From a virus (Duplodnaviria > Caudoviricetes): DNA of 58,914 nt. The notes beneath the pieces were generated by a model that searched no databases, had not been told where the DNA came from, and was given only the letters and a program-made list of their open reading frames with translations. This document shows positions 12,159 through 55,465 of the stretch, one piece after another (the stretch's first letter is position 1; each line of letters begins with the position of its first letter). The stretch is from the IMG/VR virus record IMGVR_UViG_3300031565_014856, positions 1 to 58,914 of that record; one strand, 5' to 3'. The position numbers and the translations under genes are program-made.

Positions 12159-12353
12159 TTATACTAAAGATACGTTTACCGCATTTAATCCCTTTTTACC
12201 TTCAACCAGTTCAAATTCAACTTCATCGTTTTCATTTAAAGTGGTTTCATTAATACCAGAAACGTGAACAAAATGTTCTTTTTCTGAATCATTTTCTTTG
12301 ATAAAACCAAAACCTCGGTCTGTGTCAAAGAATTTTACTTTTCCTTGTTTCAT
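12159..12353 (-). CDS. cspA: cold-shock protein
   Basis: GKVKFF, RGFGFI (RNP1), HFVHVS (RNP2), GKKGLNAVNV. Confidence 0.93.
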   Translation of the reverse strand: MKQGKVKFFDTDRGFGFIKENDSEKEHFVHVSGINETTLNENDEVEFELVEGKKGLNAVNVSLV

Positions 12354-12381: not shown

Positions 12382-12407
12382 GAAGACCGAGAAAACTCCC
12401 GGTCTTC
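12382..12407 (-). terminator. intrinsic terminator after the TROVE gene
   Basis: GAAGACCGGGAG-TTTT-CTCGGTCTTC followed by T-rich tract. Confidence 0.7.
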
Positions 12408-12415
12408 GTTCATTC

Positions 12416-14092
12416 TTATATCTCGATAGCGTTTATAGCATCGATGACTTCGTTGATATTTACTTCCATTTGTGGAATTTTTTCGTAAATATCTTGAGTG
12501 TATCCGTAAAGACGGAATACCTTTTGTCCACCCTTTATAGGAGCGGTTGTTGAATATCCAACAACATCAATCAAGTAAACGTATGGGGTTCCAAACTTGT
12601 TTACATACTTCTTGAAGTTGTCTTCAACTCTACTGTATCCATCTTGCATGTCAGAGATTATTACAACTCTGTCATACTGAGTGTTATTATCTGCGAACAG
12701 ATTGAAGCAAGACGCAAAGTCAGTACCGTGACTACACTTTCCGTTGTAAGAAGTAAACTTCTTCTTCAGAGTGTTAACAGAATCAGTTGGGTTCCATCCA
12801 GTAATCTTTTCAGACCATGATGCAAAGTGATAAACATCACCTCCGATGCCCTTTGCAAAAGTAGCGGCAACTAGTGCAGCCTTCTCAGCAGGGGTTGAGC
12901 TGGATCTCTTACCACCTGGAAGCGCAACGCCTCTACCAGTCATAGAACCAGATGTATCGAATACAACTGCAGTTCTACCTTCAGGAAGCAATTCCTTAAG
13001 GTTTGGAATGGAAGCTTCATACGCCTTTCCAAGCGCATCGGCAACCTTAGCCAATTGACGACCGTTGAATTCAAGAAGCATAACTTCAAGAGCAAGGTCA
13101 ATTTGGTGTGGCCATACAAGTGACTTCTTAATGAACTTAGGTTCAATAAGCAATTCACACGCAGCATCCAATAGAGGAGTATCATTAGTCTTAAGAATGT
13201 TTCTCAAGTTACGAAGCAATGCCAAGTAACCAATCTTCTTAGTCTTGATAAGTTCCGCATAGTTTTCAGTCTTTTGTTCAACGAGAACCTTTTCAGCTTC
13301 CGCCTTAGTGATTTCGCCTGACTTAACTGCTTCTGCAACCTTCTTACCAGTTTCAGTGTTCTTATCTTCAACAGTATTGAACTGCTTTAGGATTCCAAGA
13401 ACAAGAGCACGAAGTGCAGGAACTCTTACAGTTCCTTCAACAACTTCGTTGAATGTGTCCTTTTCGAACTTTGTACCAACAATAGCCTTGATGTAATCTG
13501 CAGTTGGTACATCAACGTAGCCATTCTTTTCAGTTGGAACTGGGTGAACAGCGTTAACGATGTCAACCAAACTCAAAGTGCTAGACTTCATTTGGTACTT
13601 AGCAAGTTCGTACGCATCAGCGTTTTCAATAGCGCCCTTGAAACCTCTCTTCATGGCACCTGGAATGGTATTGGTCTTATTCTTCGCACGGTAGCACGCA
13701 AGAATTTCCATCATATCGTCAAGACGATAGATTATACCACCTTCGTTGCCCTTACGGTTTCTCTTAGAGAAGAATCTCTTTCCAAGTTCATCACCAGAAA
13801 GGTGAGGCAATAGATTAACCGCTCCAACGTGGGTAACGGATCTTTGACCGAATACGCTACGTGCATAGACGAGTGCCTTTGCAGCAAAGAGCTTATCTTT
13901 CTTCGCGATGGTATCAATAACTTCGCGCAAACGAGTTTCGCGTTCTGATTCCTTTTCATAAAAGGTATTCTGGATTCCTGTGGATAGGATTCCTACGAGT
14001 TCATGTTCTGGTCTTTGGGTTTGACCGGATCCACCTTGGTGAGTAGTAGTCTTTTGAACTACAGGTTCTCTCTTTTGATTGTACTTAGACAT
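12416..14092 (-). CDS. Ro60/Rsr-like TROVE-domain RNA-binding protein with C-terminal vWA domain
   Basis: N-terminal NTFYE, ALVYARSVFGQRS, LAKY, ALLRNLRN; vWA MIDAS DTSGSM, GTD, IISDMQ. Confidence 0.88.
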   Translation of the reverse strand: MSKYNQKREPVVQKTTTHQGGSGQTQRPEHELVGILSTGIQNTFYEKESERETRLREVIDTIAKKDKLFAAKALVYARSVFGQRSVTHVGAVNLLPHLSGDELGKRFFSKRNRKGNEGGIIYRLDDMMEILACYRAKNKTNTIPGAMKRGFKGAIENADAYELAKYQMKSSTLSLVDIVNAVHPVPTEKNGYVDVPTADYIKAIVGTKFEKDTFNEVVEGTVRVPALRALVLGILKQFNTVEDKNTETGKKVAEAVKSGEITKAEAEKVLVEQKTENYAELIKTKKIGYLALLRNLRNILKTNDTPLLDAACELLIEPKFIKKSLVWPHQIDLALEVMLLEFNGRQLAKVADALGKAYEASIPNLKELLPEGRTAVVFDTSGSMTGRGVALPGGKRSSSTPAEKAALVAATFAKGIGGDVYHFASWSEKITGWNPTDSVNTLKKKFTSYNGKCSHGTDFASCFNLFADNNTQYDRVVIISDMQDGYSRVEDNFKKYVNKFGTPYVYLIDVVGYSTTAPIKGGQKVFRLYGYTQDIYEKIPQMEVNINEVIDAINAIEI

Positions 14093-14129
14093 AATTGCCT
14101 CCTTTCATTAATTAAATTTATACTAAAAT

Positions 14130-14166
14130 AAAAAAGCCCGAGTGACGTGTGTCTTCTCGGGCTTTT
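14130..14166 (-). terminator. terminator/attenuator hairpin in the TROVE gene leader
   Basis: AAAAGCCCGAG...CTCGGGCTTTTTT located between the motif RNAs and the TROVE start codon. Confidence 0.8.
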
Positions 14167-14205
14167 GTAATCCAAATAATCGTAATAAAATGGAATATAA
14201 AGTTA

Positions 14206-14293
14206 GTCGAGAAAATTGGTGAGAGTTTTTCTGTCTGGCTTTCGCCTGATCTTTCTTATGGTTGAAACGAAGTATCTCTTACCTTACTACAAC
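14206..14293 (-). ncRNA. Y-RNA-like motif RNA copy 1 (TROVE leader)
   Basis: GUUG-UAGUAA-GGUAAGAG-AUACUUCG...CUCUCACC-AAUUUUCU-CGAC; motif shared with four other loci. Confidence 0.75.
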
Positions 14294-14327
14294 AGTGCTT
14301 TTCAATATTTTAAAGAACAAAAATTTT

Positions 14328-14392
14328 GTTGAGAAAATTGAGCAGAGTATTTTTTCATTTTTCCTACGAAGTAACTCTATTCTTACTACAAC
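14328..14392 (-). ncRNA. Y-RNA-like motif RNA copy 2 (minimal)
   Basis: GUUG-UAGUAA-GAAUAGAG-UUACUUCG...CUCUGCUC-AAUUUUCU-CAAC. Confidence 0.75.
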
Positions 14393-14495
14393 TAAATTTT
14401 ATATTGGTAAATATATACCAAGTTTCGCTTCTGCGAAAATATTTTTTGTTAATTTTTTGTTAAGATTCAATTTATATATAGAATCCCATTTTTAC

Positions 14496-14723
14496 TCAAT
14501 TGATACTTAGTGCCGAGGATGCTTGATATGTTATGTCGCCGATATAAGGTTGGCTCCAGTCTTGCACATACACATCCTCATATTCTTCGGTTATTATCTC
14601 TCTTCCGAGATAACGTCCTTCACAATCGTACTTGTCGATTGTTTTGGTTACTCTTTTGACCATCTTCATTTGTGGGTTCCATGTTGAGATACCCGGATAA
14701 GTTACATTACAATTTTCCATCAC
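14496..14723 (-). CDS. hypothetical protein
   Basis: tiled ORF. Confidence 0.5.
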   Translation of the reverse strand: MMENCNVTYPGISTWNPQMKMVKRVTKTIDKYDCEGRYLGREIITEEYEDVYVQDWSQPYIGDITYQASSALSIN

Positions 14724-15534
14724 AGTTTATTATTTTACATTCAATCAATTCAAATATACGTTGTGCCTGTAACTTTGTGTTTTCTTTTCCATCTATGTTT
14801 CCATCCACTTTAATAAGAGGATTTTTTGGAACTTCATAAGGTGCACTTATTCCTGTGAAATTTTTTATCTTTCCGTCAATTGCCTTTTGGTAGAGTCCCT
14901 TCACATCTCTATCCATACATTTTTCAATATCTGTGTTAACATAGATCTCGTTAAACCCATCACCAATTATCTTTTTAGCATTGGCTCTTGAAGATCTATA
15001 TGGAGATATGAAAGCTGTTAATACTATTATGCCCGCATCGTTGAAAAGTTTTGCTACTTCGGCAATCCTTCTTATGTTTTCTTCGCGATCGGTTTTCTTA
15101 AATCCTAAGTCAGCATTAATTCCCCATCGTATGTTGTCACCATCAAGAATGAATGTTTTATATCCTTTATTGAATAATAATTTGTCAAGTTCTTCAGCTA
15201 TTGCAGATTTTCCGCTACCCGATAATCCGGTAAACCAAAAAACCGTGGGGTTCTGGTGTAGTTGTGCAGCCCTCTCTTCCTTGCTTTCACCCAACGGTTT
15301 AGGATGAATATTGGCAGGTTTTAATATTTTCTTAGCGAACCTAATTCGCGTAAACCAAAATCTCTCATGATAATAATAAGCAAGCATTTTCACAAACACT
15401 TCGATCAATCCTATATTAAGGGCCATTTGTATGTCGCCACTTAGAAACCATGCAATGGCAATTGTAATTAACGTAGCTGTTATCCTCCATGTTACTGTCT
15501 TTAGAAGATGTCTCTTTTTATCATTTCCAACCAT
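14707..15534 (-). CDS. cysC: adenylyl-sulfate kinase with N-terminal DUF2061-like membrane domain
   Basis: WFTGLSGSGKS, LDGDNIR, DREENIRR, FISPY, RDVKGLY, FTGISAPYE; N-terminal KTVTWR..YYYHERFW. Confidence 0.9.
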   Translation of the reverse strand: MVGNDKKRHLLKTVTWRITATLITIAIAWFLSGDIQMALNIGLIEVFVKMLAYYYHERFWFTRIRFAKKILKPANIHPKPLGESKEERAAQLHQNPTVFWFTGLSGSGKSAIAEELDKLLFNKGYKTFILDGDNIRWGINADLGFKKTDREENIRRIAEVAKLFNDAGIIVLTAFISPYRSSRANAKKIIGDGFNEIYVNTDIEKCMDRDVKGLYQKAIDGKIKNFTGISAPYEVPKNPLIKVDGNIDGKENTKLQAQRIFELIECKIINCDGKL

Positions 15535-23378: not shown

Positions 23379-23432
23379 AAAGGTTAACGAAACCTAGTTG
23401 AATCAAGTATTTTCAAAGAACTCTTTCTTTAG

Positions 23433-23773: not shown

Positions 23774-23789
23774 AGTATTTTTCAAAGAA

Positions 23790-24056
23790 CTAATACAACC
23801 AGTTAATCACTGATTCATATCTAAAATCACTATCTTCATTTAACTGCTCCAATTCTTCTTCTGTCATCTCCCTTCCGTCATATTCTGCGTAGGATATAAA
23901 GGCATCGCAAAAGTCTGGAGCATCTCTGTGATCAATATCTTCTATTTCAATGCTTCCGATTTTGGAGTAATCAAAAATAAATTTATTTCTAGCATTCTCT
24001 TTTTGATTGTGCTCCCAATTTTCTATAGTTTTATCTTTTGACATTAGTTCAACCAT
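23790..24056 (-). CDS. hypothetical protein
   Basis: acidic ORF with DAPDFCDAFISYA motif. Confidence 0.6.
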   Translation of the reverse strand: MVELMSKDKTIENWEHNQKENARNKFIFDYSKIGSIEIEDIDHRDAPDFCDAFISYAEYDGREMTEEELEQLNEDSDFRYESVINWLY

Positions 24057-24261: not shown

Positions 24262-24379
24262 AGTAGAGAAAATTTAAGAGTGTATTGAGGATTTGAACCC
24301 CGTGTCCCGAAGGACGCCTGTTTTTCAGACAAGTGTGTATACCAATTTCACGATGAAACACTACTTAGTTACTACTACT
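24262..24379 (-). ncRNA. Y-RNA-like motif copy 3 replacing the acceptor stem of a type II tRNA body (anticodon GAA)
   Basis: AGUAG-UAGUAA-...UUUCAUCG + D arm + CUUGU-CUGAAAA-ACAGG + variable arm + T arm + CACUCUUA-AAUUUUCU-CUACU. Confidence 0.8.
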
Positions 24380-27861: not shown

Positions 27862-27996
27862 ACTGAGAAAATTGACTAGAGATATTTTATCGTGCTACCA
27901 ATTACACTAATCCCGCATAAACATGGAGCGGGACCCAGGATTCGAACCTGGACTAATCGTTCCCAAAACGAAGTAACTCTTGGTCGTTACTACAGT
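27862..27996 (-). ncRNA. Y-RNA-like motif copy 4 enclosing a circularly permuted tRNA-Pro-like module
   Basis: ACUG-UAGUAA-...UUACUUCG, loop UUUGGGA, T arm, GUCCCGC-U-CCA-linker-GCGGGAU, D arm, CUCUAGUC-AAUUUUCU-CAGU. Confidence 0.82.
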
Positions 27997-28073: not shown

Positions 28074-28111
28074 ATGGAAAACAGTACGTCAAAGAACATA
28101 TAACTTCTTCT

Positions 28112-55182: not shown

Positions 55183-55465
55183 ATCAAAGAACTTTTAGTT
55201 TATAAGGTAAATATAAGCATTTTTTCCGAGACTAAAAAATTAATTTTTAACAAAATCTTAACATGAGGCTGAAAACCAACCTCTTGGGGAGCATATAACT
55301 AAAGTCTTTACGCCTCGGGAAAGAAAGTCTTGCACCTGCGACCCCTGCCCGCCCGCGTATATGGAATAAATAATAAAAGGTTTTAAATCTTAACCGAACT
55401 TTAACATCCAAGAATGTCCAAACCCCACGAAATTTATTAAATTAGCTTAAAATAACTATGTACTG

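Follow-up and report, generated by a model that had tools for sequence, protein, structure and literature searches.

The window analysed here is a 58,914-nucleotide (nt) stretch of a virus of the Caudoviricetes (IMG/VR record IMGVR_UViG_3300031565_014856, positions 1 to 58,914), and the element in question is the leader of its Ro60/TROVE gene, in which two copies of a small RNA motif are followed by an intrinsic terminator and then by the gene itself. The open reading frame (ORF) at 14092..12416 matches the Pfam family TROVE (E 9e-8), PHROG 850, 'RNA-binding protein' (E 4e-28), and the TROVE chains 9L5Y/9KOP of Thermus phage phiLo, for which a structure has been solved (E 6e-15). Matches obtained with tblastn include, among others, phage proteins annotated as 'Ro-like RNA binding protein', and a blastn search of the region against GenBank phages gave no match. 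All elements of the leader are read on the minus strand, from the region 14442..14463 down to the ATG at 14092, as follows.

14463..14442, minus strand: direct repeat TTAACAAAAAA-TTAACAAAAAA, 5' of the promoter-like box (sequence reading)
14438..14423, minus strand: small hairpin
14415..14408, minus strand: promoter-like box TATATTTA (sequence reading; a sigma-70-type scan also gives a site at 14437..14410)
14392..14328, minus strand: Y-RNA-like gene copy 2 (distal), 65 nt, with the invariant basal stem and covarying inner helix; 72.5 bits, E 6e-13 with the motif covariance model R1
14318..14310, minus strand: 9-mer GTTCTTTAA between the two copies; GTTCTTTAA(AA) extends to 14308
14293..14206, minus strand: Y-RNA-like gene copy 1 (terminator-proximal), 88 nt; R1 58.7 bits, alignment and covariation
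Within copy 1, minus strand: basal stem, 5' GUUGUAGUAAG with 3' CAAUUUUCUCGAC, the proposed anti-antiterminator and putative Ro site
14215..14208, minus strand: 5' strand of the proposed antiterminator, UUUUCUCG; it forms the 3' strand of copy 1 and pairs with 14159..14152 in the minimum free energy (MFE) fold of the truncated transcript
14205..14167, minus strand: spacer of 39 nt with a weak internal hairpin, nested inside the proposed antiterminator helix (folding)
14166..14130, minus strand: intrinsic terminator, an 11-base-pair (bp) stem with an inner 3-bp extension, then a T6 run
14159..14152, minus strand: 3' strand of the proposed antiterminator, CGAGAAGA, within the 5' arm of the terminator
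14106..14098, minus strand: Shine-Dalgarno sequence GAAAGGAGG
14092, minus strand: ATG start codon of TROVE
14092..12416, minus strand: Ro60/TROVE gene, 558 amino acids (aa), the gene that the proposed switch would gate

An earlier note on this DNA had given the order of elements as promoter-like box, copy 2, GTTCTTTAA, copy 1, terminator and TROVE start, and both the order and the coordinates proved right. The same is true of the alternative pairing that it had claimed: UUUUCUCG (14215..14208) can pair with CGAGAAGA (14159..14152) over 8 bp, including one G-U. TROVE starts 37 nt past the terminator, the two motif copies lie 114 to 300 nt upstream of it, and the proposed switch is compact, at about 170 nt. 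The terminator itself is strong, with a folding free energy of -19.8 kcal/mol (z-score -6.4; none of 200 shuffled sequences folded as well), and was also found by a second terminator scan. Since the promoter scan detected no minus-strand sigma-70-like site between 14300 and 14092, and the short gap between terminator and gene leaves no space for a promoter, TROVE must be expressed by read-through of this terminator. The sequence TTAGTATAAA, which lies just 5' of TROVE in the window and in the clade of relative L001 (relatives are given locus numbers here), was considered as a promoter and rejected; it is not kept in L137, L140, L141, L198 and L187, and there is too little room for a full promoter.

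Within the window alone, the alternative pairing is only moderately unusual. When the 20-nt 5' arm and loop of the terminator were shuffled, 81 of 5000 sequences gave a helix of at least 8 bp, and 13 of 5000 reached a duplex energy of -9.6 kcal/mol or lower. Folded as a whole, the leader has an MFE structure that contains the terminator and lacks the alternative pairing; a full-length transcript should look this way. It is from homologous loci that the case draws its weight. As separate observations, the other terminators of the window share a CCGGGA/UCUCGG flavour, and the one 3' of TROVE (12382-12407, minus strand) holds UUUUCUCG, an 8-mer identical to the 3' strand of copy 1; this is probably a coincidence, as it is not common to relative L140.

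Relatives were collected from three sources. The first consisted of eight viral contigs with a TROVE protein 50 to 67% identical to that of the window. The second was a search of viral contigs with a 22-base motif pattern, which gave 10 loci, 8 of them real, namely six from the first source and the new loci L128 and L129. The third was the same pattern applied to metagenome contigs, which gave 63 loci, 34 of them with an R1 match at E up to 1e-3; the other 29 were chance matches in coding DNA without an R1 match and were dropped. An initial 15-base pattern had returned 115 stretches by chance only, and the single one with a TTT(T/C)CTC 3' strand (in the L126 contig) had no R1 match. The compared set comprised 20 distinct terminators that follow the last motif copy, from loci with TROVE proteins sharing about 28 to 85% identity with that of the window; 21 other distinct terminators, found in these loci and in the window, served as controls. 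Exact duplicates, control hairpins weaker than -13 kcal/mol and the 29 loci without an R1 match were left out of the counts, as was L008 (TROVE 50% identical), which has only a degenerate motif-like RNA without an R1 match.

We found that the 5' arm or loop contains GAGA, usually as (Y)GAGAA(A), in 19 of the 20 motif-following terminators and in none of the 21 controls; on the latter count, we reject the idea that these phages use GAGA-type stems generally. GAGA is the complement of UUUUCUC, the invariant 3' strand of the motif, and the mean energy of the duplex with the cognate motif strand was -9.4 kcal/mol, as compared with -3.1 kcal/mol for the controls (Mann-Whitney p 1e-6, with kinship between loci ignored). 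The foot of the terminator stem varies among relatives (GCC, GGC, GCU, GGUC, ACC, UGCC), as do the loops, and (Y)GAGAA is kept; thus, conservation falls specifically on the bases that pair with the motif. It is kept even in the L147/L155/L190 clade and in L170, where TROVE is only 28 to 33% identical to that of the window. The constraint falls on the 5' arm, as its Watson-Crick complementarity to the motif strand exceeded the identity of the 3' arm to that strand in 17 of the 20 terminators, was equal in one and lower in two (Wilcoxon p 4e-4). Complementarity also extends into terminator bases that are unpaired or wobble-paired within the terminator, reaching 11 bp in L137, 10 bp in L198 and in L001, and 9 bp in L140.

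The 5' arm also follows the motif copy nearest to it. In 11 of the 14 loci with two copies, the proximal copy is the better partner of the arm; in one locus the two are equal, and in two the distal copy is the better (sign test p 0.011, with several loci belonging to one clade). Individual substitutions in the proximal copy are matched in the arm: the G that replaces A next to CUC in the window is answered by C for U, the motif A of L128 and L198 by U, and the fifth-position G of the L001, L003, L137, L140 and L171 lineages by C.

To describe the state just before the termination decision, each transcript was taken from the first base of the last motif copy through the terminator loop and folded. 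The MFE fold holds the helix between the motif strand and the terminator 5' arm in 17 of 18 loci, with the basal stem of the motif open and its inner helix intact. The antiterminator fold was more stable than a fold with the basal stem forced closed in 17 of the 18 (median difference in free energy, ddG, -5.8 kcal/mol; -5.5 kcal/mol in the window), L129 being the sole locus that prefers the closed stem. When the 5' arms of the 21 control terminators were swapped in, the median ddG rose to +1.6 kcal/mol, and values of -4 or below were obtained in 6 of 357 combinations, compared with 15 of 17 native ones; in 16 of the 17 loci, no control arm attained the native ddG. The nested spacer often forms a hairpin of its own, whose sequence is unrelated between loci, with stronger ones in L140, L141, L136, L147 and L186. 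Since the antiterminator is favored in truncated transcripts, the predicted default of these leaders is read-through, and modeling suggests that the RNA would switch to termination if some factor stabilized the closed basal stem by a few kcal/mol.

The earlier note had named, among its checks, whether homologous leaders conserve the alternative pairing, and the pairing is conserved by each measure applied here (19 of 20 against 0 of 21, the constraint on the 5' arm, the tracking of the proximal copy and the energetics). The polarity proposed there, with the antiterminator forming in the absence of protein, agrees with the default state predicted in 17 of the 18 loci. We regard the alternative pairing as very probably real and under selection. 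It probably also modulates read-through, and the antiterminator helix would presumably do so by actually preventing termination.

We then consider what the motif RNA is. Across 36 aligned instances, pairs 1-4/91-94 and 6-7/89-90 hardly vary and a U is bulged, so that the basal stem reads GUUG/CAAC, the bulged U and AG/CU, followed by a conserved asymmetric internal loop. UACUUCG is invariant, and the inner helix covaries, an AU pair being replaced by GC at one position in nine sequences. The model R1 detects four copies in the window, the two of the leader and two more in a tRNA array.

27862..27996, minus strand: third Y-RNA-like gene, between two tRNA genes; R1 42.4 bits, with a tRNA-like T arm and D arm (YrlA-like)
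24263..24378, minus strand: fourth, weaker Y-RNA-like gene, in the tRNA array; R1 29.7 bits, E 6e-4, with T-arm-like and D-arm-like hairpins (sequence and fold)

The array copies exceed the leader copies in length and have T and D arms, which both leader copies lack; the second motif copy in L138/L160 likewise carries a tRNA-like domain. The Rfam YrlA model RF02553 aligns with 27996..27862 from end to end (model positions 1-114; 18.6 bits, E 0.085, gathering score 69). These features agree with those of bacterial and phage Y RNAs, which are encoded near Ro and of which each genome has one or more with a tRNA-like domain. Two Y RNAs from a single precursor lie upstream of Rsr in M. smegmatis (PMC4201824), and in Thermus phage phiLo two Y-like RNAs upstream of Ro60 are bound by Ro60 (PMC12135203). 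Because the Rfam gathering score is not reached, we file the motif as a divergent Y-RNA-like family outside formal YrlA membership and invisible to Rfam. By analogy with all Y RNAs studied, Ro would bind at its basal stem. At seven further loci, tRNA genes flank the motif at a distance of 3 to 9 nt, and the scan, at its threshold, gave no terminator within 300 nt. As the motif RNA thus also occurs as a free-standing gene between tRNA genes, the Y RNA would be both product and sensor.

These data are consistent with a mechanism in which a conserved promoter would drive two minimal Y-RNA genes, followed by the intrinsic terminator and then by Ro60/TROVE, with the 5' arm of the terminator complementary, without bulges, to the 3' strand of the nearer Y RNA. 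When the weak, bulged basal stem is open, its 3' strand would pair with the terminator 5' arm to form an antiterminator, and the polymerase would read into TROVE. When the stem is held shut, the terminator would form, and the two Y RNAs would be released without Ro messenger RNA (mRNA). Ro binding to the basal stem of the nascent proximal Y RNA would cause termination, so that Ro synthesis would end once Ro is matched to Y RNA. We assign a probability of roughly 0.58 to this terminator/antiterminator switch, in which the Y-RNA basal stem acts as the anti-antiterminator and Ro closes the stem and limits its own synthesis. Its weak link is the identity of the effector: that Ro decides between the two states is proposed because the motif would be a Y RNA and Ro is the one protein linked to the motif in almost all loci. 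There is about an even chance that the Y RNA acts in cis, during transcription, as a sensor of free Ro, the same termination event releasing the Y RNAs and stopping Ro mRNA.

Several points weigh against this reading. The covariation is incomplete, since L141 and L171 have C before GAG with an A in the motif, the matching motif G being found in the window only, and clear compensatory events number only about four to six. The loci are related, and the statistics therefore overstate their independence. The complementarity is short in some of them (6 bp in L141 and L006, 5 bp in L186); in L129 the match is limited to 5 bp in another register and folding favors the closed stem, and in L171 about 170 nt separate the two pairing strands. 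Local terminator hairpins fold faster than a strand can invade a preformed stem, so kinetics may favor termination. The L136/L173 lineage has, after its switch, a viral protein of 569 aa or more in which TROVE is not detectable. With respect to the RNA itself, Rfam gave no family match for the leader at the gathering score, nor when E values up to 10 were allowed, and the array copy falls far short of the YrlA gathering score (18.6 against 69).

One possible explanation for the same data is that the terminator is tuned to leak and is not regulated, the competing helix setting a fixed read-through that yields much Y RNA and little Ro mRNA without any sensing of Ro. The order of small RNA genes, terminator and downstream gene is a common one, TROVE must in any case be read through the terminator, and an alternative helix accounts for partial read-through without a protein. 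However, a weak terminator would suffice for this purpose without conserving the sequence of the 5' arm across TROVE proteins only about 30% identical. Moreover, the competing strand is that of an invariant, presumably protein-bound Y-RNA stem, and therefore any protein binding there must shift the balance. We consider a fixed leak rather unlikely.

Another explanation is that the switch is real and senses something other than Ro, such as a host protein like PNPase, a 66-74 aa phage protein, temperature or RNA-processing enzymes. The genes downstream of the switch bear on this idea. TROVE lies downstream on the same strand in all assessable terminator-type lineages except L136/L173; the sequences of L175, L189 and L197 end too early to place it. 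The gap between terminator and TROVE is 32 to 47 nt in the window, L006/L187, L137, L140, L141, L170 and L198. TROVE follows 240 to 814 nt after the terminator, behind an ORF of 66-74 aa, in the L001/L003/L148, L176 and L186 lineages, with an additional 104-aa ORF first in L147/L190, and in L129 and L128 it follows the motif at a distance of some 1.5 to 2 kb. The 66-74 aa ORF (1891-2091 in L001, with equivalents in L129, L176, L186, L147 and L190) is conserved in its place between terminator and TROVE, and it belongs to no Pfam or PHROG family. Because such small ORFs intervene in several relatives, the switch would gate a small operon there, not TROVE alone, and the product, judged from sequence and position, may be a partner of the phage Ro. 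Such an ORF would also be a candidate sensor, as would PNPase, which Y RNAs bind in other systems (PMC4201824, PMC12135203), and the downstream gene of L136/L173 is not recognizably TROVE. On the other hand, the small ORF is absent from the window and from L006, L137, L140, L141 and L198, all of which keep the switch, and TROVE is the downstream gene in every other assessable lineage. A sensor other than Ro thus appears distinctly improbable, and we prefer Ro as the stem-closing factor.

Two observations on individual relatives are added here. L173 (190-480; 477-2183) has a motif pair, a GAGAAA terminator, three copies of an element of about 22 nt (ATAGGTAAAAGAnGTTCCTATAA) and then the protein of at least 569 aa. 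In L171, the stretch of about 170 nt from motif to terminator (about 2090-2260) is richer in G and C and looks structured, as does a stretch after the small ORF of L129; these stretches may be further non-coding RNAs.

The complementarity might also be a by-product of descent, the terminator being a decayed third copy of the motif that pairs with the other copies without any function. Tandem motif arrays make a duplication plausible, and in L136 and L141, 8 to 9 nt of the motif 3' strand recur in the 3' arm of the terminator. The 3' arm of a decayed copy should resemble the 3' strand of the motif, whereas the complementarity of the 5' arm is the greater in 17 of the 20 terminators, as described above. 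No remnant of UACUUCG or of the GUUGUAGU bulges is found in the terminators, neutral sequence would not keep (Y)GAGAA while adjacent stem bases and loops change, and the arm tracks substitutions specific to the proximal copy. This origin is very unlikely to account for the pairing.

The remaining candidate determinant of read-through is the 9-mer between the two motif copies, which belongs to a family, GTTCTTTRA, that occurs 10 times in the window against 2.4 expected (none of 100 shuffles reached 10). The minus-strand copies lie before tRNA genes or just after promoter-like boxes.

14310-14318, 23413-23421, 23782-23790, 28089-28097 and 55184-55192, minus strand: copies of GTTCTTTRA

The copies at 23421 and 23790 share a longer repeat beginning with GTTCTTTGAAAA. 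Between motif copies, the 9-mer is present in the L001, L003, L137, L148, L197 and L198 lineages, which are nearest to the window. We take GTTCTTTAA to resemble the rrn boxA, and it may be a boxA-like site or else a second box of a promoter; only unrelated papers came up when the literature was searched for the 9-mer and boxA jointly. Least probable of all is that boxA-type processive antitermination loaded at GTTCTTTAA, and not the alternative helix, decides read-through. In favor of this, the 9-mer is enriched and precedes untranslated RNA genes in the window and its relatives. Against it, L006, L128, L136, L171 and L176 retain the GAGA terminator but have no 9-mer between the copies, a promoter box with a TTTG/TTTA core is an equally good reading of the 9-mer, and the conserved 5'-arm sequence is left unexplained; boxA could also coexist with the switch.

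The proposed switch, with Ro closing the Y-RNA stem, can be compared with known systems. Attenuation of this kind is exerted by the RNA-binding proteins PyrR and TRAP. Autoregulatory transcription attenuation has likewise been described for L20 on the B. subtilis infC leader (PMC1865079). The leader described here resembles such protein attenuators in having a terminator, a mutually exclusive antiterminator and an upstream structure, the predicted protein-binding site, that sequesters one antiterminator strand, and in the proposed outcome that bound protein leads to termination and thus to negative feedback on its own gene. It differs in that the sensor would be the functional ligand RNA gene itself, released by the same termination, and not a mimic of it, in that the protein is Ro60/TROVE and the system is phage-encoded, and in that the dependence on protein is here a predicted one. 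With YrlA/YrlB (RF02553; PMC4201824) and Yrl1/Yrl2 of phiLo (PMC12135203), the motif RNAs share their position upstream of Ro on the same strand, a stem formed by the 5' and 3' ends and at least one copy with a T and D arm module (here 27996..27862), and with the M. smegmatis RNAs the arrangement of two RNAs in one precursor. Unlike in those RNAs, the basal stem here has a different sequence, and Rfam does not recognize the leader copies. The presumed likeness to the rrn and lambda boxA-Nus systems lies in a short conserved element in the leader of untranslated RNA genes, after promoters and before tRNA arrays; the boxB/boxC context is lacking here, and the element is absent from several lineages that bear the switch.

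The main texts of PMC4201824 and PMC12135203 nowhere use the word 'terminator', and that of PMC12135203 does not contain 'autoregulat'. In the full-text papers searched, no report of attenuation or autoregulation was found for Ro60 or Y RNAs, the 2020 Annual Review and the supplements of papers being outside the scope of this search. Nor was there, in the literature searched (again with the 2020 Annual Review of bacterial Ro60 outside its scope), any organism with a known means of matching the levels of Ro60 and Y RNA. If the mechanism is correct, it would be the first described autoregulatory circuit for a Ro60 protein, with the ligand RNA gene itself, rather than a mimic, as the attenuator; a phage would set its ratio of Ro to Y RNA with a single RNA element, conserved over phage lineages in which Ro is only about 30% identical to that of the window. 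It would be a case in which one small RNA gene also serves as the regulatory leader for the protein partner of its RNA. The motif also offers a putative minimal Ro-binding stem for a large group of uncultured phages and would mark a new Y-RNA family that Rfam does not detect.

Further features lie around the leader. The promoter-like box reads TATATTTG in several relatives and fits TAnnTTTG, a promoter motif named in papers on Bacteroides; this fit hints at a Bacteroidota host. The 22-base motif pattern gave 18 matches in genome contigs, none of them real by eye or by R1, and thus no clue to the host. Two copies of TTAACAAAAAA lie about 25 nt upstream of the TATATTT(G/A) box, and the repeat is also found 5' of the first motif copy in L137, L141, L148, L150, L175, L187, L197, L198, L128 and L155. 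Judged from its sequence and position, it is probably a promoter-associated element and may be a site for a phage-specific promoter or regulator.

With respect to the genome surroundings, the window carries 18 tRNA genes on the same strand as the TROVE leader. The upstream neighbor of the leader, at 14707-15534 on the minus strand, encodes an APS kinase fused to DUF2061 (Pfam E 1e-62), and the downstream neighbor of TROVE, at 12159-12353 on the same strand, encodes a cold-shock-domain protein (E 2e-19).

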